Translations under genes and position numbers: made by a program
In this document: piece by piece, positions 15,469 through 51,174 of the stretch
How positions within the stretch are numbered: position 1 is the stretch's first letter
Layout: every line of letters starts with the position of its first letter
Origin: Candidatus Undinarchaeales archaeon
GTDB lineage: Archaea > SpSt-1190 > JASMDC01
DNA length: 64,000 nucleotides
Direction of reading: 5' to 3'
Assembly (NCBI GenBank): GCA_030753015.1
Contig: JASMDC010000003.1
Location: 1-64,000 of the forward strand
The notes under the pieces: generated by a model
Told to the model about the DNA's origin: nothing
Database searches by the model: none
What the model saw: the letters and a program-made list of their open reading frames with translations, nothing else

Positions 15469-16113
15469 ATGGCACGGAAAGGCTCCCAAAAGAAGAAACT
15501 CGAGTCAACAAAGACCGAGAATGATTGTGGGGGTAAGGATACCAAGAAGAAGAAGGACGTGCCGAAAGAGGATACGAGTATCAAGGAAGAGAAGGTAGAG
15601 GTCGCCGAGAAGGAGCCCGAGCGGACCGTTCTTCCTCCTGCTGGCCTGAGCACGGAGGGTCTCCGCGTAGGCGTTGGGATCACATTGCTGGGGCTCCTGC
15701 TCACCCTCTTCGTCTCTCTGTCGGCGGCAGGTCCGTCTCAGGGGCGATACGTCGCCGCCAACGAGTTCTCCACATCGGTCGCCACGGTGTCCCAGGGCGA
15801 TCTCGTCTACCTCAAGGAAGGGGCCCCGACCAACGACGATCTGGCTGTGTGCGTCCTAGATATATTCACATACCCGACGATCTGTCAGGTCGTGAAGGCT
15901 ACCAATGATGGCTATCGTGTGCGCTATAGAGAAGGGGAGATCCTGAACACCACTTCCCTCAAGCAGCACCGGGTGAAGGGCGCCATCGATCCGGCGAAGA
16001 CGATTCCCGGATCCACGGTGGAGAACTACGCAAACATAGCCGCTATTGGCCTTCTCCTTACCATCGGGGGAGTGGGCGCAGTGATTATCAAAGGATTTGA
16101 ACGGGAGGTATGA
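15469..16113 (+). CDS. Hypothetical two-TM membrane protein (possibly degenerate S26 signal-peptidase-like)
   Basis: Lys/Glu-rich N-terminus, TM, QGDLVYL domain, C-terminal TM; TATA box TATAAA at ~15431. Confidence 0.65.
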   Translation: MARKGSQKKKLESTKTENDCGGKDTKKKKDVPKEDTSIKEEKVEVAEKEPERTVLPPAGLSTEGLRVGVGITLLGLLLTLFVSLSAAGPSQGRYVAANEFSTSVATVSQGDLVYLKEGAPTNDDLAVCVLDIFTYPTICQVVKATNDGYRVRYREGEILNTTSLKQHRVKGAIDPAKTIPGSTVENYANIAAIGLLLTIGGVGAVIIKGFEREV

Positions 16114-18400: not shown

Positions 18401-19899
18401 CATACATACGATCACACCACAAACAAGCCTGGCTGCTTGCCCCGAACATCGAGGACATGATACCGGCCGACCACATCTGCTACCTCGTCGAAGCGCTCAT
18501 GGAAATGATCGACTTCACCCGGTTCGACAAGAAGTACGCAGGCCCCGGACACCCCGCGTACCATCCCCGGGTCATCCTGAAGCTGCTCGTGATGGGTGTC
18601 ATGGACAGGGTGCGCTCATCCCGCAAGCTTGCCCGGAACGCCAGAGAGAACGTCGTCTACATGTACCTCGCGGAGAAGCTCACGCCGGACTTCAGGACCA
18701 TAAGTGACTTCCGCAAGCAGAACGCCGATCTCGTCAAGCAGCTCTTCAAGGACACCGTGGCGCTCGCCAAACAGGAAGGGGTGCTCGACCTGGCCCAGCT
18801 CGCGACGGACGGGACCAAGATCAGGGCCAACGCTACCAACAAGCGCTCGCTCACCAGGGAAGAGCTCGAGTTCATGACCCGGTTCGTTGACGAAGAGCTC
18901 GATGAATGGGCCAGACAGGACCGGATAGAGGACGAGGCGTTCGGCACGCTGAGGGGATACGACCAGCTCCCGGGCAAGGGCAAGCAGAAGATGCGCGCTG
19001 CAGTACGACACTATGTGAAGCATACCAAGGAAAAGGGCGACGGGTTCGAAGAGATGGCGTCCCGAAAGCTGGAGAAAGCACGCCAGGAGATGGAACAGCA
19101 CAACCTCGACAAAGTGAGCACGACGGACACCGACTGCCGATTCATGAAGTCCAAGAAGGGAAGGCTGGAGTTCTCGTACAACCCTCAGGTCACGACGGAC
19201 GGGAATTGCTTTATCCTCGCCTCCGACGTATGCCAGGACGTGAACGACAAGAGACAACTGCAGCCCCAAGTGCTTCAGACGGAAGAGAACCTCGGCCAGA
19301 TATCCGAAGGAACGCCATGGAACTTCGACAATGGGTACTTCGGAGGGGACAACCTGGCCTTCCTCAAGGAGAAGAAGATCAACGCGTACGTCGCAACGGA
19401 AAAACCGGACCCCAACCCGTACAGCGCCGACAAGTTCATCCACGACCCCAAGAAGAAAGAATACACATGTCCCGGAGGACACGTCATGAGATTCCTCGGC
19501 GAAAGACATGAGAAGAGCCGGGGCTACAGGTACAACCTTTACCGGTCCTATAGCTGCCACACGTGCCCGCACCAGGGATCGTGCACCAAGAGAAAGGATG
19601 GCATCCGTTACCTGAAGGTCTACCCGCACCCCGAGCTCAGGGATGAGATGATCGCCAAGATAAGCACCAAGAACGCGAAGAAGACGTACCGCCAGCGTAA
19701 AGAGACCGTCGAGCCGATGATAGGATGCATCAAATACGACCTGGGGCTCGATGAGTTTCTCACGAGGGGCCTTGGAACGGTGAGAACGGAGTTCAGGCTG
19801 GCCTGTACGGCCTTCAACGTCAAGAAGATGTGGTTGCGGATGCGGGAGAGGGCCGCTGGTGTGGTCGGAAGCACACTTGCTCCCGTACATCCGTGTTGA
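18397..19899 (+). CDS. IS1182-family transposase
   Basis: GHPAYHP, SSRKL, PDFRTISDFR, DGTKI.ANA, STTDTD, FDNGY, R..TVEP.IG.IK; no internal stop. Confidence 0.93.
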   Translation: MTYIRSHHKQAWLLAPNIEDMIPADHICYLVEALMEMIDFTRFDKKYAGPGHPAYHPRVILKLLVMGVMDRVRSSRKLARNARENVVYMYLAEKLTPDFRTISDFRKQNADLVKQLFKDTVALAKQEGVLDLAQLATDGTKIRANATNKRSLTREELEFMTRFVDEELDEWARQDRIEDEAFGTLRGYDQLPGKGKQKMRAAVRHYVKHTKEKGDGFEEMASRKLEKARQEMEQHNLDKVSTTDTDCRFMKSKKGRLEFSYNPQVTTDGNCFILASDVCQDVNDKRQLQPQVLQTEENLGQISEGTPWNFDNGYFGGDNLAFLKEKKINAYVATEKPDPNPYSADKFIHDPKKKEYTCPGGHVMRFLGERHEKSRGYRYNLYRSYSCHTCPHQGSCTKRKDGIRYLKVYPHPELRDEMIAKISTKNAKKTYRQRKETVEPMIGCIKYDLGLDEFLTRGLGTVRTEFRLACTAFNVKKMWLRMRERAAGVVGSTLAPVHPC

Positions 19900-19959
19900 G
19901 GATATTCATTCTCACATCGATCGGTGTATGGTATCGAATTGTCGGACAGCCTGTTTCCG

Positions 19960-21062
19960 ACCGTGGGATGAATCGCGTTCCACGGAATGTGGGTGAACAC
20001 GCGTAAGAAGAACGGTCAATCCCAACATCAGTACCTGAATCATCAGTAGGTGTATTATGCATATTAGGGGTCTAATGATCTATTACCGGCACACCACCCC
20101 CCTATGGTATATAATGATGAACGGCCTATTACCTATTTGGGGTGTCAGCCAAGGACGATAATTGAACAGAAGACAGCGGTCGCGTCCTGCGGGCCTAGGT
20201 CCGGCCAATGATGAGCAAAGCTGAAAATGCTGGCTGATCGGTCGGGCTTGCGGTCTTCCGGGGGAAAGGTGAGGGATGCTCATAACACGGAGCGTTCATA
20301 GAGAGGTTCGCGTGCACGTGGATGTGCAGATGCCTCGACCCAGTCTGGTAACGGAAGGAGTTCTGAACGCTGTGATCAATATTCAGAATCGCTCAGGGTG
20401 GGGACCACCCGATGTGCCCGTGGAGCTGGAAACAGCGTCGAAGCGGGAAGCTCCTCCACTTGGAGAGGGGTAGTTCACAGGTCCCATCGGCAGCTCCGGG
20501 AACGATCTAAGCACAACTCGCACAAAGGACGTGAATGGGCGTTCGTCAACGAACCCACCTTTGAAAAGGGGAGCATCCCTGGTGTCCATTTGTGAAGGGC
20601 TCTCGCTCTTCCTATGGAACGCCTCACCCCGACCCCCTGGTTTCCGATGGAATAGTGCGGCCGGAAGAGGACCTGCGTCCGCTGGAGGAACGCCGGATGT
20701 AAGCTTAGAATATGGTCCGAGTGTGGCGTTCCTGAAAAATATATTAAACCCTGCTAGCACCGACGTCTGCTCTTTGTTATTCGTACGCACGGTTGCAGTG
20801 GAAATCATGATTCATCTTCAAAAAAACACATGTGCCGATGGATAGGTCCAAGAGGTCAGACCTTCGCTTCCTATGGAGTTCGGTTAAGATAGAAAATCGA
20901 GATTGTCAGGAATCTGACGGGATCGATGCGGTGAAAACAGGAATCTCCACAGGAAATGTAGGGGTAGTCATGAGAATGGATGTATAGCTTCCACTACCAC
21001 TATCTTTATAGGGTACCTTGATTTCCACTGGAGGTAGGGGTAACCCTTAAAATGGTGCTGAG
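19960..21062. promoter_or_regulatory. Probable replication origin (oriC) with ORB elements
   Basis: ~1.1-kb non-coding region upstream of cdc6 with ORB-like boxes CTCCACAGGAAATGTAGGGG (20945), TTTCCACTGGAGGTAGGGG (21022), CTCCACTTGGAGAGGGG (20454), GTTCCACGGAATGTGGG (19977) and further TTCC-N3-GGA mini-boxes (~20609, 20642, 20868). Confidence 0.8.
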
Positions 21063-22262
21063 ATGATTCAAAAGACGCTTGACAACCTCTTTGAGGAGTT
21101 CCTGACAAAGGAGAGTATCTTTACATGCAAAGGGGCGCTTCAGGCAAAGTACCAACCGAAGAACCTCCTCCACCGTGAAGAACTGGTCAAGGAGCTTGCT
21201 TCCATTCTCGCACCGACGCTCCGGGACGAGCTCCCGTCAAACATCTTCATATATGGTAAGACGGGGACCGGTAAGACCTCGGTCATCCGTTGGATCGCTG
21301 ACCAGCTCTCGAGCAAGGCTGGCTCCATCGACGTTCGTCTCAAGATTATCTATGTTAACATCAAACTCGACCGGGTGGCCGACACCGAGTACCGGCTATT
21401 CGCCTACCTCGGCGAACAGCTGGGCGCCACCATCCCCACAACGGGCCTTCCCACCTCCCATGTGTTCGATGTCTTCAAGCGCGAGGTGGACGCCAAGGAC
21501 AGCACGATCATAGTCATCCTCGACGAGGTTGATCGCCTCATCTCCAAGACCGGCGACGAGGTCCTGTACAACCTCACTCGTATGACCGGCGACCTCAAGC
21601 ACTCGAAAGTGTGCATCATCGGGATCACGAACGACCTAAAGTTCCTTGATACGCTGGATCCGCGTGTTCGGTCATCCCTATCGGAAGAAGAAATCCTTTT
21701 CCCCCCTTACAACGCTCTTCAGCTTCGGGACATCCTGGCGCGACGCGCTGAGATTGCCTTCAAGTCCGGTGTGGTCGACCAAGCCGTCGTCCGGAAGTGC
21801 GCTGCCCGAGCCGCACGAGAGCATGGCGACGCGCGCAAGGCGCTAGACCTTCTGCGAGTGGCCGGCGAGATCGCTGAGCGTGCTGGCGACACGAAGGTCG
21901 TCGAGAAGCATCTGGACATCGCTGAGGACCGCATCGACTTTGATCGTGTGCTCGAGACGGTAAAATCCCAGCCCCGACAATCGAAGGCGGTGTTGTTCAG
22001 CATCATGCGGCTCAACGGTGAGGAGGTGACGACAGGCGATGTGTACGACACGTACCGTCATATGTGCATGAACTCCGGTCTTTCCGTTCTCACACAGCGG
22101 CGGGTGTCCGATCTCATCTCAGAGCTCGACATGCTCGGGATTGTCAGCGCAAAGAAGAAGAGCCTCGGGAGGTATGGGAGAACGCGGTTCATCTCATTGC
22201 ACCTCCCCTCGGTCGTACATGGGAACATCCATGAGGTCCTTTCATCGGAGTTCGGGATGTAG
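21063..22262 (+). CDS. cdc6: Orc1/Cdc6 replication initiator
   Basis: YGKTGTGKT, ILDEVD, LDPRVRSSL, FPPYNA.QL, HGDARKALDLLR, winged helix with SLGRYGRT. Confidence 0.97.
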   Translation: MIQKTLDNLFEEFLTKESIFTCKGALQAKYQPKNLLHREELVKELASILAPTLRDELPSNIFIYGKTGTGKTSVIRWIADQLSSKAGSIDVRLKIIYVNIKLDRVADTEYRLFAYLGEQLGATIPTTGLPTSHVFDVFKREVDAKDSTIIVILDEVDRLISKTGDEVLYNLTRMTGDLKHSKVCIIGITNDLKFLDTLDPRVRSSLSEEEILFPPYNALQLRDILARRAEIAFKSGVVDQAVVRKCAARAAREHGDARKALDLLRVAGEIAERAGDTKVVEKHLDIAEDRIDFDRVLETVKSQPRQSKAVLFSIMRLNGEEVTTGDVYDTYRHMCMNSGLSVLTQRRVSDLISELDMLGIVSAKKKSLGRYGRTRFISLHLPSVVHGNIHEVLSSEFGM

Positions 22263-24092: not shown

Positions 24093-24324
24093 TGGACCCT
24101 GAGACACTGACCGTTCATTTTTTGAATGTGGCCTGGTACCCACTGAGCGTGGATCCGACCGCATTCCCATCCACAGAGGGGGGCCTACACAAGTGACACT
24201 CTCTTCTCTTAACGGGAACGGCCAGGCCATCCTTGGAGATGATAACGGCCCGAAAGAAAAAATACCTGTCCGCCGGGTTGGAGGCGTGGATGTCAACTCG
24301 TGCACCGAGAATGACGCGTCCAAG

Positions 24325-27300
24325 ATGGATGTCGAGGTGTCGCCGCGCCTGTGTGCGTACTTCACTGCGTTGGAGCGTGATGCACGACAGTTGTACGAGA
24401 TCGCAGAAGAGGCAAGGAAGAAAGGCCTTGATCCTGAGTCACAGGTCAACATTCCTCTGGCCCGGGACGTAGCGGCACGGGTGGAGGGTCTCATCTCGTC
24501 CATCTATCCACAACTGACCGGCTCGGGGCTCGCCGAGGCAATCCGTTTACTGGAGGACGAATTCAGTAAGAACGATGAACGGATTTGTTTTCATGCAGCT
24601 GAACGGGTGGCGCGCGAGGAGTTCTGTAAATTCGAGAGTACTGAACAGGCACTCGATGCCGGCGTCCGTGTGGGTGTGGCATATAACACACAAGGTATCG
24701 TCACAGCGCCCCTTGAGGGCATCGCGCGGGTAAAGGTCAAGAAGCGTATGGATGGCGGCGAGTACGTAGCCATCTACTATGCGGGGCCTATCCGGAGCGC
24801 TGGTGGAACTGCCAACGCGCTCTCCGTGCTCATCACTGATTTCCTACGCTCAAAGTTCGGTTACCAGTCGTACGATCCGCTCGACAATGAAGTGGAGCGG
24901 TTCGTTACCGAGCTCGAGGACTACGATTCAAAGATCACGAACCTCCAGTTCAAGGTGTCGGCCAATGACATCCGGACAATGGTACATCACATCCCCGTCG
25001 AGGTGAGCGGCGACGCCACCGAGAAACTGGAAGTCCTCTCCTACAAGGACCTTGAGCGTGTCGAGACCAATAATATCCGGTCGGGTGTCTGTCTCACTCT
25101 ATCCTGTATCTACGGTAAGGCCTTCAAGCTCCTCAAGCGGATCAAAGGGAACCTATCCGGTTTCGAACTCGAGCATTGGATATTCCTTGAAGAGATGATG
25201 TCTAAGGGAAAGAAAGAAGAGAAGACGTCCGGTTCGAAGGGTGTCGAACCCTCCTACAAGTACATGAGCGAGCTTCCCGGGGGACGTCCGGTCTTCTCGT
25301 ACCCATCTCGAGCGGGCGGGTTCCGCCTCAGATACGGCCGGAGCAGGAATACGGGATTCGCGGCCTGCGGTGTCCATCCGGCCACTATGGTGGTGACGGA
25401 CGAGTTCATCTCCGTTGGTACACAGCTCAAGATAGAGTACCCCGGAAAGGCGACCGTCGCAATGCCAGTGGACGGTATCGAGGGACCGATCGTAAGGACC
25501 AGTGACGGATCCGTAGTCCGTGTAACTTCGATTGAGCAGGCACGCGAAGTGAGGAAGGATATCGACAAGGTGCTCTTCCTAGGGGACCTCTTGATAGGAT
25601 TCGGCGAGTTCGCTACGAACGGAAAGAAGCTCCTACCGGCTGGCTGGTGCGAGGAGTGGTGGGAGGGTCTCGTGCGTGAGAGCAACGAGGAACCGAGCAC
25701 CCCTGGTTCGTTCTCCGAAGCACTCGCGATCTCACAGCGGTTGAAGATCCCTCTCCACCCGCGGCACACACACTTCTACTCCGACCTATCACGGGATCAG
25801 CTGTCCGCACTAGCGCGATGGTTAGGGACAGGGACTATCGAGCGTGTTCCGCGAGATCATGCAGATGGGGGCACTATCATCCATCTTAGACTCAAGCATG
25901 ATGACGCTGGCAAGGATGCCCTTGAGATCGCGTGCCTACCACACTCGGTGACCGATGGTGAAGTGGTCATCGAGGGGGAAGCAGAAGAGCTACTCGTCAC
26001 CTTTGGAATGTTGGATGTAGACCGCATCGATCCATCGCGACTGCTGGGGATCTTGGACGAACTCCGTGATGCCTCGGCCCTTGAGGTCATCAACGCCGTT
26101 TCCCCGGTCATGATCAAACCTTTCGCTCCCGCGTACATTGGAACGAGGATGGGCCGACCCGAGAAAGCAGAGAGACGGATCATGAAGGGATCGCCCAACC
26201 TTCTCTTCCCTGTTGGTCGTGATGATGCGGGGGAGAAGAAGCAGCGTTCGCTCATCAAGGCCGCTCAGCACAAGACCGTGCGTGTCGAGCTAGGAAAACG
26301 CTTCTGCCCGGAGTGCAAGGAGTTCACGTTCATGGCGAACTGTCCGACCTGTGGGGCCCTCACAGAGCAGAGAAGGGTTTGTGTCCGGTGTGGCCAGGTC
26401 ACTAAACTGGACATGCATTGTGAAATACCTACAAAGAGATCGGACTTCTACCATCTTCCGTTCAAGGAGCTCATCGATGCGGCCGCCGGTAACGTAGGCG
26501 AGCGAGTGCCTGCCGAACTGAAGGGCGTGCTCGGGATGAGCTCACGCTCCAAGATACCTGAGCGTATGGAGAAGGGGATACTACGTGCCAAGCACCGCGT
26601 GCTAGTGAACAAGGACGGTACGATCAGGTTCGATGGTACGGACTGTCCCATCAGCCATTTCACGCCCATTGAGATCGGAACAACAGTGGAGCGTCTAAGA
26701 GAGCTCGGGTACGTCGAGGACATCCATGGGAAGACGCTCGAACATGAGAATCAGGTGGTCGAACTTCTAGCTCAGGATATCCTTGTGTCCGACTTTAGGG
26801 ATCCTGACGGTAAAATCGCTTCGGGAGCTGACTACTGTACTCAGATATGCAACTTCGTCGACGATCTCCTCGAGAGGTTCTATGGGATGCCCCGATTCTA
26901 CAATATTTCATGCCGCGAAGACCTCGTAGGACACCTTGTAATCACGCTCGCACCCCACACATCGGCCGCCATCATTGGAAGGATCATCGGATTCACTCCT
27001 GCCAGAGTATACTATACTCATCCTCTGCTTATTGCTGCACGTAGACGGAATGCGGATGGGGATGAGGATTCTATCTCATTGGCGCTCGATGCGCTCCTCA
27101 ACTTCTCACGGTCATTCCTCCCTGATACACAGGGGGCTCGAACCATGGACGCACCTCTCGTGCTCACACTCATACTGAATCCCTCAGAGATTGATGATGA
27201 GGTATGGGATATGGACACGAGCTGGAGGTATAATCCAGCCTTCTACGAGATGACGTACGATTATCCTGAACCGAAGGATGCAAAGAAAGCGCATAATATT

Positions 27301-27819
27301 GAACAGTATGCCGACAGGATCGGTAATAACTCTCAGTACGAGGGGCTTGGATTCAACATAGGGACGACCGATGTTAGCGCTGGACCCACTATTACTGCAT
27401 ACAAATTTCTGGGAAGTATGCTCGAGAAAGTGGATGCACAGCTTGAGCTTGGACGTAAGATACGTGCTGTGAACGTGGACGGAGTTGCTGGTCTAGTGCT
27501 AGGGACACACTTCCTTAGTGATATCAAAGGGAATATTCGTACGTTCACCAGACAAAAGATCCGATGTATCACATGTAATTCCAAGTACCGTCGCGTTCCT
27601 CTGACCGGCGTATGCACAAGGTGTGGGGGTAAGCTAATACTAACTGTCGCTCCAGGAAGTGTCTCAAAGTATATCGCACCTTCAATGAGGATCGCTGAGA
27701 ATTTCAAGATAACTCCGTATCTCAATCAGCAACTTGAGGTTGCATCAAGACGTCTTTTGTCTATGTTCGGAAAAGAGAAACATCAGCAAGTTGGCCTTGA
27801 TACTTTTCTTTCAAAATAA
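24325..27819 (+). CDS. polC: DNA polymerase D large subunit DP2
   Basis: YAGPIRSAGGTA, GGFRLRYGRSRNTG, RMGRPEKA, Zn fingers, RRNADGDED catalytic motif; no intein seen. Start ATG 24325 or GTG 24193. Confidence 0.96.
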   Translation: MDVEVSPRLCAYFTALERDARQLYEIAEEARKKGLDPESQVNIPLARDVAARVEGLISSIYPQLTGSGLAEAIRLLEDEFSKNDERICFHAAERVAREEFCKFESTEQALDAGVRVGVAYNTQGIVTAPLEGIARVKVKKRMDGGEYVAIYYAGPIRSAGGTANALSVLITDFLRSKFGYQSYDPLDNEVERFVTELEDYDSKITNLQFKVSANDIRTMVHHIPVEVSGDATEKLEVLSYKDLERVETNNIRSGVCLTLSCIYGKAFKLLKRIKGNLSGFELEHWIFLEEMMSKGKKEEKTSGSKGVEPSYKYMSELPGGRPVFSYPSRAGGFRLRYGRSRNTGFAACGVHPATMVVTDEFISVGTQLKIEYPGKATVAMPVDGIEGPIVRTSDGSVVRVTSIEQAREVRKDIDKVLFLGDLLIGFGEFATNGKKLLPAGWCEEWWEGLVRESNEEPSTPGSFSEALAISQRLKIPLHPRHTHFYSDLSRDQLSALARWLGTGTIERVPRDHADGGTIIHLRLKHDDAGKDALEIACLPHSVTDGEVVIEGEAEELLVTFGMLDVDRIDPSRLLGILDELRDASALEVINAVSPVMIKPFAPAYIGTRMGRPEKAERRIMKGSPNLLFPVGRDDAGEKKQRSLIKAAQHKTVRVELGKRFCPECKEFTFMANCPTCGALTEQRRVCVRCGQVTKLDMHCEIPTKRSDFYHLPFKELIDAAAGNVGERVPAELKGVLGMSSRSKIPERMEKGILRAKHRVLVNKDGTIRFDGTDCPISHFTPIEIGTTVERLRELGYVEDIHGKTLEHENQVVELLAQDILVSDFRDPDGKIASGADYCTQICNFVDDLLERFYGMPRFYNISCREDLVGHLVITLAPHTSAAIIGRIIGFTPARVYYTHPLLIAARRRNADGDEDSISLALDALLNFSRSFLPDTQGARTMDAPLVLTLILNPSEIDDEVWDMDTSWRYNPAFYEMTYDYPEPKDAKKAHNIEQYADRIGNNSQYEGLGFNIGTTDVSAGPTITAYKFLGSMLEKVDAQLELGRKIRAVNVDGVAGLVLGTHFLSDIKGNIRTFTRQKIRCITCNSKYRRVPLTGVCTRCGGKLILTVAPGSVSKYIAPSMRIAENFKITPYLNQQLEVASRRLLSMFGKEKHQQVGLDTFLSK

Positions 27820-27860: not shown

Positions 27861-27970
27861 TGACATTATAATTTACTGATATAGTTTCTGATTATATATT
27901 ATATTGACCTTATAATATACTGTTATAGTTACTATACTATAATACTATATGACCATCTAATTTACTGGTA
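27861..27970 (+). repeat. Three direct copies of a 21-bp motif at 44-45 bp spacing
   Basis: TGACATTATAATTTACTGATA (27861), TGACCTTATAATATACTGTTA (27905), TGACCATCTAATTTACTGGTA (27950). Confidence 0.85.
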
Positions 27971-28006
27971 AAACTTATCAATCTTAATTACTTCATTTTT
28001 TTCATT

Positions 28007-28459
28007 ATGATTAAAAAGAAACTAGGTAGACGTTTTTCTGATCAAGCATGTACGAACAAGTCATGTAGGAATTTCGCTGTACCAGGACTTGGTAACATAA
28101 TCGGAAATGGCACTTATCAAATCCAAGATGGTATAGTTAGGAAGTTCTTTTGTCGAACATGCAAGAAATCTTTTTGTGATCGAACTAGAACAGCTTTCTA
28201 TGATTTGCGAACTAAGGATAAGATATTCTATGATGCTCTAACACTTATTATCAAAGGCAAGAGCATAAGATCCGTTGCAAATGAGCTCGATACGACACTT
28301 GACACTGTAAGATCTTGGCTCACTCGTGCAGCATCACATCCGGACGATGTGAATTCTACACTTTCAAATCGAACTGGATTTGAGGTCGAGAAGCTCAATG
28401 AACTATGGTCATCAGTACGTGCAAAGCGGTTTTCTGAATGGAAGAGGAGAGATAAATGA
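28007..28459 (+). CDS. Truncated IS1-family (InsA-like) zinc-ribbon + HTH protein, lacking DDE domain
   Basis: C-x4-C...GNIIGNGTY...CRTCKKSF...TAFYDLRT...GKSIRSVA...DTVRSWL.RAA.H. Ends just after LNELWSSV, where IS1 transposases have DELW. Confidence 0.75.
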   Translation: MIKKKLGRRFSDQACTNKSCRNFAVPGLGNIIGNGTYQIQDGIVRKFFCRTCKKSFCDRTRTAFYDLRTKDKIFYDALTLIIKGKSIRSVANELDTTLDTVRSWLTRAASHPDDVNSTLSNRTGFEVEKLNELWSSVRAKRFSEWKRRDK

Positions 28460-28635
28460 ACCGTTAACTATTTTCCTTTCTTTTTAGCGAAAGCAAGACC
28501 AAGCATGAGTTTTGAGAACACTCCCATTTTATATTCACTGTCAGTCAGACAATACCACGATAACCTTGATATAAACGTTCTCATGATAGTAGAGTAGAAT
28601 ATTGTAGGATAATAGAGTAGTATAGTATATAGTAA

Positions 28636-28681
28636 TACCAGTAAATTATAATGTCAATTATATCAGTAAATTAGATGGTCA
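28636..28681 (-). repeat. Two inverted copies of the 21-bp motif
   Basis: TACCAGTAAATTATAATGTCA (28636-28656) and TATCAGTAAATTAGATGGTCA (28661-28681). Confidence 0.85.
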
Positions 28682-50922: not shown

Positions 50923-50974
50923 TACCAGTAAATTAGGGGGTCAGTACATCGGGTGACCGTCTAATTTACTGATA
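50923..50974. repeat. Back-to-back inverted pair of the 21-bp motif
   Basis: TACCAGTAAATTAGGGGGTCA (50923-50943), 10-bp spacer, TGACCGTCTAATTTACTGATA (50954-50974). Confidence 0.85.
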
Positions 50975-51045: not shown

Positions 51046-51174
51046 ATGATGACCGTGGAGTCATACGCCCATATCGACTTCATCAAGGACTTCGATAGCT
51101 ACTTTGCTACCGATGGGATTGAACTCAACGAGAACCTCAACGACCAGTGGGCGAGCTGGATGATCTACTTCTAA
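51046..51174 (+). CDS. Putative 42-aa acidic/aromatic small protein
   Basis: MMTVESYAHIDFIKDFDSYFATDGIELNENLNDQWASWMIYF; BRE/TATA-like GAGAAATCCTTAAAA ~20 nt upstream; genome-typical codons. Confidence 0.5.
   Translation: MMTVESYAHIDFIKDFDSYFATDGIELNENLNDQWASWMIYF

Follow-up and report, generated by a model that had tools for sequence, protein, structure and literature searches.

An orphan InsA-like gene of IS1-family descent and its conserved inverted-repeat-like sites in an archaeal genome: a candidate domesticated DNA-binding protein

In an archaeal metagenome-assembled genome (MAG; G000, 3.85 Mb, 60% G+C) a gene of 150 codons, here called ORF150, is bracketed by five copies of a 21-bp site that corresponds to the inner part of the inverted repeats (IR) of IS1-family insertion sequences (IS). 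The gene descends from the first reading frame (ORF A) of such elements, has lost their catalytic part, was inherited vertically and is under purifying selection, as are its sites. Judging from sequence comparisons, we lean on balance towards reading ORF150 as an InsA-like protein that was domesticated for site-specific DNA binding, regulates its own gene by way of the array and is wired to a few host promoters. That it is ORF150 which binds the sites, and with what sign it would regulate, we infer; another host protein could bind them.

The window (the whole analysed stretch of 64,000 nucleotides, contig C51 of G000) was recovered by a sequencing-run search exclusively from marine or seawater DNA metagenomes, with no RNA run among them. 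ORF150 and its sites occupy an A+T-rich island (27-39% G+C) between the gene for the large subunit of PolD and a convergent gene of 295 codons with a HExxH motif (Table 1). The product of the latter, in which this motif reads HEATH, matches no Pfam family and is conserved in the sister species G001 and in a third lineage, represented by the metagenome contig L048. An Orc1/Cdc6 gene stands behind a gap of 1.16 kb and is followed by both PolD subunits, and it is plausible that the array lies about 7 kb from oriC; the putative origin region (19850-21100) contains only a few short repeats. On its upstream side the same gap is adjoined by a transposase gene of the IS5/IS1182 type (DDE_Tnp_1_6, DUF772). 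Scans of the window with Rfam (gathering threshold) and for tRNAs gave no matches. Genomes of the genus measure 3.6-3.8 Mb, against 0.6-1.2 Mb in the 15 genomes of the same class that were sampled; either the genus has unusually large genomes within a class of small ones, or its placement is doubtful. Contamination of the checkM type amounts to 5%.

The sites follow the pattern TGACC-N3-TAATYTACTGRTA, which can also be written as TGAC-N4-TAATTTACTGRTA. Three forward copies, one of them degenerate, with start-to-start spacings of 44 and 45 bp, and two inverted copies spaced by 25 bp were confirmed exactly where the preliminary description had placed them. With up to three mismatches the window holds seven matches where chance gives 0.06, a number reached by none of 100 shuffles, and the array is therefore taken to be real; the two matches outside it form a head-to-head pair. 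The genome-wide motif scan that had been proposed as a check returned, with up to two mismatches, 15 matches in the whole of G000 and none for a reversed control pattern. The inner flank of site 2 (27926-27949) is similar to that of site 4.

Table 1. Position of genes, sites and related features in the window and elsewhere in G000, with orthologous sites in the sister species G001.
Feature	Position	Strand	Counterpart in G001	Remarks
IS5/IS1182-type transposase, 570 aa	18187-19899	+
Orc1/Cdc6	21063-22262
PolD large subunit	24193-27819
Site 1, outermost left	27861-27881	+	15/16 fixed positions identical	0 mismatches; TGACATTATAATTTACTGATA
Site 2, degenerate	27905-27925	+	3' flank 29/30 identical	2 mismatches
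Site 3	27950-27970	+	21/21 identical	0 mismatches; position of ancestral left inverted repeat
ORF150, orphan ORF A (InsA-like), 150 aa	28007-28459	+		Zn ribbon, HTH, helical tail; D->N in DELW; no slippery run
Transglutaminase-like gene remnant	28468-28591	-		last 19 codons and 5' leader
Site 4, inverted	28636-28656	-		identical across all three lineages
Site 5, inverted, outermost right	28661-28681	-
HExxH protein, 295 aa	28742-29629	-
Head-to-head site pair	50923-50974	.	C11:3426 (for 50923)	50923-50943 (-) and 50954-50974 (+); 10-bp spacer 50944-50953; 72 nt upstream of conserved 42-codon ORF
42-codon ORF	51046-51174	+
Head-to-head site pair	C75, spacer 15949-15958		C1:50952/50983
Single site	C95:122479		C1:326107
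Single site	C95:45128		C1:388333
Single site	C42:109		C2:154719
Single site	C84:131763		C5:70194
Block of three genes (L049), 2.9 kb	C84:128848-131765		absent
IS relic, 846 bp (L017 1415-2260)	C29:162598-163443		no counterpart
Match with 3 mismatches	C62:105444-105464

ORF150 is intact and carries four cysteines (C15, C20, C49 and C52), a helix-turn-helix (HTH) at about residues 70-110 and the tetrapeptide NELW at 131-134. An AlphaFold model (pLDDT 89.5) consists of a three-stranded Zn ribbon followed by six helices. Pfam yielded sub-threshold HTH matches only, with no IS1 N-terminal model among the families at E values up to 0.1, and a Foldseek search of the PDB with the model gave no match at E <= 0.001. 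The best hit of a wide VIA-align search with the model (Z 6.9) covers residues 65-112, a generic three-helix HTH of the kind found in resolvase, TrpR, GerE and Tc3, and such fold matches of a predicted structure are not informative about family. A homodimer prediction scored 0.00 and weighs neither way.

Since Pfam detects no IS1 model in ORF150, its descent was established through full-length relatives. A word-index search returned five proteins of exactly 150 aa, 80-100% identical and all with N131, together with a second group of 156-aa proteins that are 46-54% identical to ORF150 and retain DELW. Longer homologs escaped this word-based search but were found by an exhaustive profile search, which gave 2075 relatives, mostly of 130-170 aa and a few of full length. 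Three full-length proteins (P0047, P0092 and P0130), retrieved with the profile of the ORF150 clade at E values of 3e-31 to 3e-19, score 35.1, 35.2 and 41.5 bits on PF03400 (DDE_Tnp_IS1), the cut-off of which is 24.1. The five 150-aa proteins are monophyletic (100/100) in a tree, where their short tips (0.05-0.15) arise from a long stem (0.99) and the surrounding branches are IS-encoded ORF A sequences. These sequence relationships place ORF150 in the IS1 family by descent. The same Zn-ribbon and HTH module is also joined to a MarR-like winged-helix part in a protein of 300 aa (L019 1465-2367, genome G038) and is found at the C-terminus of proteins of about 500-550 aa that begin with an XRE-type HTH_3 (P0029, P0036); in these proteins the module may have been recruited anew.

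Loci of the 156-aa group are patchily distributed over MAGs of Thermoplasmatota, Halobacteriota, Methanosarcinales, Methanothrix and Methanobacterium and two bacterial MAGs. The search for full-length IS1 copies with the motif at their ends, likewise suggested beforehand, was successful in other archaea: complete relatives measure 987-1275 bp and encode, besides the 156-aa ORF A, an ORF B of 226-241 aa in the -1 frame. Like ORF150 with its NELW, ORF A ends some 20 residues beyond DELW, and translation of the remaining transposase proceeds by a -1 shift at an A9 run (GTCAAAAAAAAACAG); in the four copies checked (L036, L038, L039 and L042) the run is A9 (GTCAAAAAAAAACAG or GTTAAAAAAAAACAG) in three and A8 in L042. 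Being homologous to the ORF A of elements with this IS1 plan, ORF150 is itself an ORF A, i.e. InsA-like. Its initial characterization as a truncated gene thus stands as far as the intact frame, the Zn ribbon and HTH and the NELW are concerned, but not as to truncation, the protein not being shortened in comparison with the 156-aa ORF A of its relatives. The InsA of IS1 itself has 91 aa.

The IRs of the relatives read GGTAG-TGACCC..TA.T...TGAT(A/G), and the array motif equals their inner part, in line with the resemblance to IS1 ends that had been noted beforehand. They extend 5 bp further out than the motif, with GGT at positions -5 to -3 in 13 of 16 IS ends and in 0 of the 25 sites of G000 and G001, where only the A at -2 survives. 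From the end of the left IR (IRL) to the start of ORF A there are 34-41 nt in autonomous and relic IS copies, and 36 nt separate site 3 from the ATG of ORF150. The inner flank of the sites (GRTA-TTA...) is like that of IS left ends and unlike that of right ends (GATG-TTTTAT), which is suggestive, not strong, evidence that the sites derive from left-end-type IR copies.

The ORF150 locus has neither an ORF B nor the catalytic D, residue 131 being N in five of five variants, and where the slippery run would be, GTACGTGCAAAGCGG stands in the window. No match to PF03400 was obtained in G000 or G001, and a search of both for homologs of ORF B, in MAGs which can miss repeats, had as its sole match a truncated relic on contig C29. 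This relic has GGTGC-TGACC ends and a frame break; its ORF A of 153 aa has V where DELW has D, an A8 run comes next, and the ORF B sequence extends no further than residue 105 of 226. Apart from it, ORF150 is present in G000 as a single copy, and no direct repeat was seen outside sites 1 and 5 when the flanks were read by eye. None of the marks of an autonomous IS was thus found at the locus, neither a DDE core, a frameshift site and GGT tips nor multiple copies, variable location or target duplication. Nor is there a MITE-type presence/absence polymorphism with many copies, the locus being orthologous in three lineages and seven of the eight dispersed sites orthologous. The concern that the motif is simply the end of multi-copy IS1 elements does not hold for a genome with 13 sites and ORF B only as the fragment on C29.

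A search of 61 genomes gave a single close relative, G001, a sister species of the same genus, in which the ortholog of ORF150 has 150 aa, 86% amino acid identity and the same place after the gene for PolD DP2. Between the two species dN/dS is 0.11 (NG86) or 0.08 (YN00) at a dS of 0.86-1.08; the corresponding values are 0.04-0.06 and 0.71-0.89 for the C-terminus of PolD, from a protein-guided alignment, and 0.15-0.21 and 0.65-0.86 for the HExxH gene. The shared locus and these low ratios indicate that ORF150 has travelled with its neighbours under purifying selection, contrary to the notion of a neutrally evolving reading frame. The gene is not confined to one species at this locus either, as had been considered: besides G001, the third lineage (81% identity) has the same array at the same place, with sites 3, 4 and 5 intact, the outer TGAC of site 1 changed and site 2 degenerate, spacings of 44, 40 and 25 bp, and site 3 ending 37 nt before the ATG. 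IS1 descent, dN/dS and the shared locus together lend support to the proposal that the DNA-binding protein of a transposase has been domesticated along with an array of several sites. The other suggestion of the preliminary description, an unusual non-autonomous element, finds no support at a locus that is fixed in three lineages and has no GGT tips.

An intact transglutaminase-like gene (Transglut_core; 316 aa, L018 1962-2912, minus strand) lies in G001 between ORF150 and sites 4-5, which face its start from a distance of 84 nt. The window is without the segment L018 2022-2914, and L048 is without the gene as well, sites 4-5 being kept in both; the loss in G000 and L048 goes back to either one deletion or two. 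An interpretation of the DNA after the ORF150 stop as a decayed DDE domain was rejected, this DNA aligning to the two ends of the transglutaminase-like gene of G001.

In total G000 has 13 good sites, namely the five of the main locus, two head-to-head pairs and four singles; further motif matches are the ends of the C29 relic and a doubtful match on C62, which adjoins a spacer of very high A+T content in front of an Lrp/AsnC-like gene and may be due to chance. Flank alignments revealed an orthologous place in G001 for 12 of the 13 sites, including seven of the eight dispersed intergenic ones. Not every copy has been kept: site 50954 is deleted in G001 by a deletion that begins right after TGACC, the left half-site of the pair being retained, and the weak G001 site C4:116381 corresponds to a decayed one in G000. 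Over the 12 orthologous pairs, the 16 fixed motif positions are identical in 187 of 192 cases (97%), compared with 42 of 60 (70%) for the five degenerate positions and 519 of 745 (70%) for the 30-bp flanks (Fisher's test, p = 9e-9 and p = 8e-20, respectively), statistics that rest on one species pair, as the system is carried by two genomes and one short contig, and on classes of fixed and degenerate positions defined from the sites of G000 itself. Conservation of the fixed positions at a dS of about 0.9 indicates selection on specific base contacts.

Six of the eight dispersed sites (five of the six loci) turn their inner end toward a gene start 57-104 nt away, and conserved TATA-like blocks lie between dispersed sites and gene starts. 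The adjacent genes are the 42-codon ORF, a divergent pair formed by a GDPD gene and an acidic 109-aa ORF, a 143-aa ORF at the head of a block of glycosyltransferase genes, an M20 peptidase gene and the gene of a LarC-like protein. The positions in front of genes favour a regulatory role over a centromere-like or iteron-like one; counting against it, these genes share no functional theme, and the site C42:109 is located between two convergent 3' ends rather than at a promoter.

Some further features of the dispersed loci deserve mention. The 42-codon ORF (MMTVESYAHIDF...) is strongly conserved in G001 and has no Pfam match. Both head-to-head pairs have a spacer of 10 bp, of non-conserved sequence; this is the length of two missing 5-bp IR tips joined to each other, the arrangement of a junction at which IRR abuts IRL. 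The block on C84, which comprises the 143-aa ORF, a PMT_2-like protein of 470 aa and a GT2 protein of 297 aa, begins no more than about 10 bp from the inner end of site 131763; that this segment is a composite transposon between two sites was rejected, no inverted site being found at its far boundary. Indel edges coincide with site edges both here and at 50954 (in comparison with L026), and these coincidences may be traces of adjacent deletions once made by a transposase.

Taken together, the proposed regulator would have kept the Zn-ribbon and HTH module that once recognised the IRs of an IS, whereas all that movement requires has been lost: ORF B and its DDE core, the frameshift site at the A run, the first D of the catalytic residues and the GGT at the tips. 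ORF150 would bind the 21-bp IR-derived sites, whose bipartite build, in which 3 bp separate a TGACC box from a TAATYTACTGRTA box, would fit the two DNA-binding modules. Since site 3 takes the place of the parental left IR and promoter, 36 nt from the ATG, binding there would autoregulate the gene itself, as InsA does at the IRL of IS1. Sites 1 and 2, four helical turns apart, and the inverted sites 4 and 5 could provide cooperative or looping contacts, and the single or paired sites whose inner end faces one of six host gene starts, at a distance of 57-104 nt, would make up a small regulon. In its most complete form, which we advance tentatively and would not yet call probable, this scenario has the DNA-binding half of an IS1-family transposase captured as a transcription factor and scattered left-end-type IRs turned into operators, which stand before at least six host genes and in a five-site autoregulatory and perhaps looping array about the captured gene itself, and which have been under selection since before the two species split.

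Several other explanations have been weighed against a domesticated regulator. ORF150 might be a transposition-immunity factor, an InsA-like repressor kept to silence or out-compete incoming IS1-family elements at their ends, with the dispersed sites being incidental. The InsA of IS1 is a repressor of the promoter of its element and a competitor of the transposase for both IRs (PMC12428005). A related element did once invade G000 and is now the dead relic on C29, no intact IS1-family transposase was found in G000 or G001, and purifying selection on ORF150 would fit equally well. Immunity leaves unexplained, however, why seven of the eight dispersed sites have kept their orthologous location and 187 of 192 fixed positions agree, and why the five-site array has been retained in three lineages, so that we judge it unlikely. 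A role in chromosome organisation (centromere-like, origin-linked or bridging), in which ORF150 would pair or position DNA by reusing the ability of a transposase to synapse ends, appears to us rather more doubtful still. It would accommodate the distance of about 7 kb from the Orc1/Cdc6-PolD block, the occurrence of sites as direct arrays, inverted arrays and head-to-head pairs, the site between convergent gene ends and the missing theme among adjacent genes, but the flanks of the locus encode PolD DP2 and the HExxH protein and no ParA/SegA-type partner, there are only about 13 sites, six of the eight dispersed ones face a gene start at a promoter-like distance, and nothing links the array functionally to the putative origin, the sites being unplaced on the chromosome in a draft assembly.

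The two remaining explanations treat the locus as an element rather than as a host gene. It could be a dead, internally deleted IS1-family element accompanied by old solo ends, which only the closeness of the species makes look conserved. The motif is indeed an IS end, a genuine decaying relic does exist on C29 and some sites are lost or degenerate; yet a dS of about 0.9 predicts heavy neutral change where dN/dS is 0.08-0.11 and the length is exact in five variants, identity reaches 97% at the fixed positions of the sites but 70% in their flanks, and what follows the stop codon is the remnant of an unrelated gene, not ORF B. Decay is thereby already largely refuted and seems to us very improbable. 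Least credible of all, and hardly to be expected, is a non-autonomous mobile cassette, that is, a unit bounded by inverted sites and moved in trans by a transposase encoded elsewhere: inverted IR-like sites do bracket ORF150, and indel boundaries meet site edges at two other loci, but the unit is single-copy and occupies the same locus in three lineages, GGT tips are found at 0 of 25 sites, the flanks as read show no target duplication, and no catalytic partner was found in G000 or G001, MAGs being liable to miss repeats.

A domesticated regulator would have its closest model in the IS1 element itself. IS1 encodes InsA, with zinc finger (ZF) and HTH, and by a poly-A -1 frameshift InsAB', and InsA binds the IRs via ZF and HTH, represses the promoter overlapping IRL and competes with the transposase (PMC12428005). 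InsA is thus, like ORF150, a small protein made up of the N-terminal Zn-finger and HTH part of a transposase, and the parent elements of ORF150 share with IS1 an ORF A upstream of a poly-A -1 frameshift, in IS1 with a left IR that overlaps the InsA promoter (PMC12428005). Unlike InsA, ORF150 is an orphan without ORF B or slippery run, single-copy, at a fixed locus and vertically inherited, and it has five sites around it and others before host genes. The archaeal IS1-family elements (copies in L036, L038, L039 and L042, among others) agree with it in an ORF A that is 46-54% identical, in the IR motif and in the distance from IRL to start, but possess the GGT tips and A9 run that the ORF150 locus lacks.

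Analogous, not homologous, is the RAYT/REP (REPIN) system, described (PMC5581495) as a single-copy, housekeeping-like transposase descendant that is flanked by cognate repeats, with more intergenic copies that are often inverted pairs. ORF150 resembles it in being single-copy and flanked by presumed cognate sites, with intergenic copies that include inverted pairs; RAYTs, on the other hand, are catalytically competent Y1 (IS200-type) proteins with tens to hundreds of hairpin repeats, whereas ORF150 is the DNA-binding half of a DDE family without a catalytic domain and has about 13 duplex sites. Eukaryotic transcription factors that derive from transposases and have binding sites of TE origin, such as FHY3/FAR1, follow the same logic, the DNA-binding domain of a transposase being kept, catalysis lost and element ends serving as cis sites, as is reported (PMC6000157); ORF150 differs in superfamily and domain of life, and its predicted regulon is tiny.

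Domesticated transposases that act through old element ends are a textbook theme in eukaryotes. To our knowledge few bacterial or archaeal cases are documented, the best known being RAYT/REP, which keeps catalysis. Full-text searches, subscription journals and supplements aside, brought up no archaeal or bacterial report of an orphan regulator of the IS1 InsA type with conserved sites derived from IRs. If true, the interpretation of ORF150 as a domesticated regulator would give prokaryotes an equivalent of the 'transposon turned gene network' of eukaryotes, one in which protein and cis sites are both seen under selection in one small set of genomes; because both are visible in this way, the rewiring lends itself to direct tests, which would have to deal with about 13 sites and one protein of 150 aa and for which the predictions are clear. 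The case shows that an IS-encoded repressor can outlive its element.
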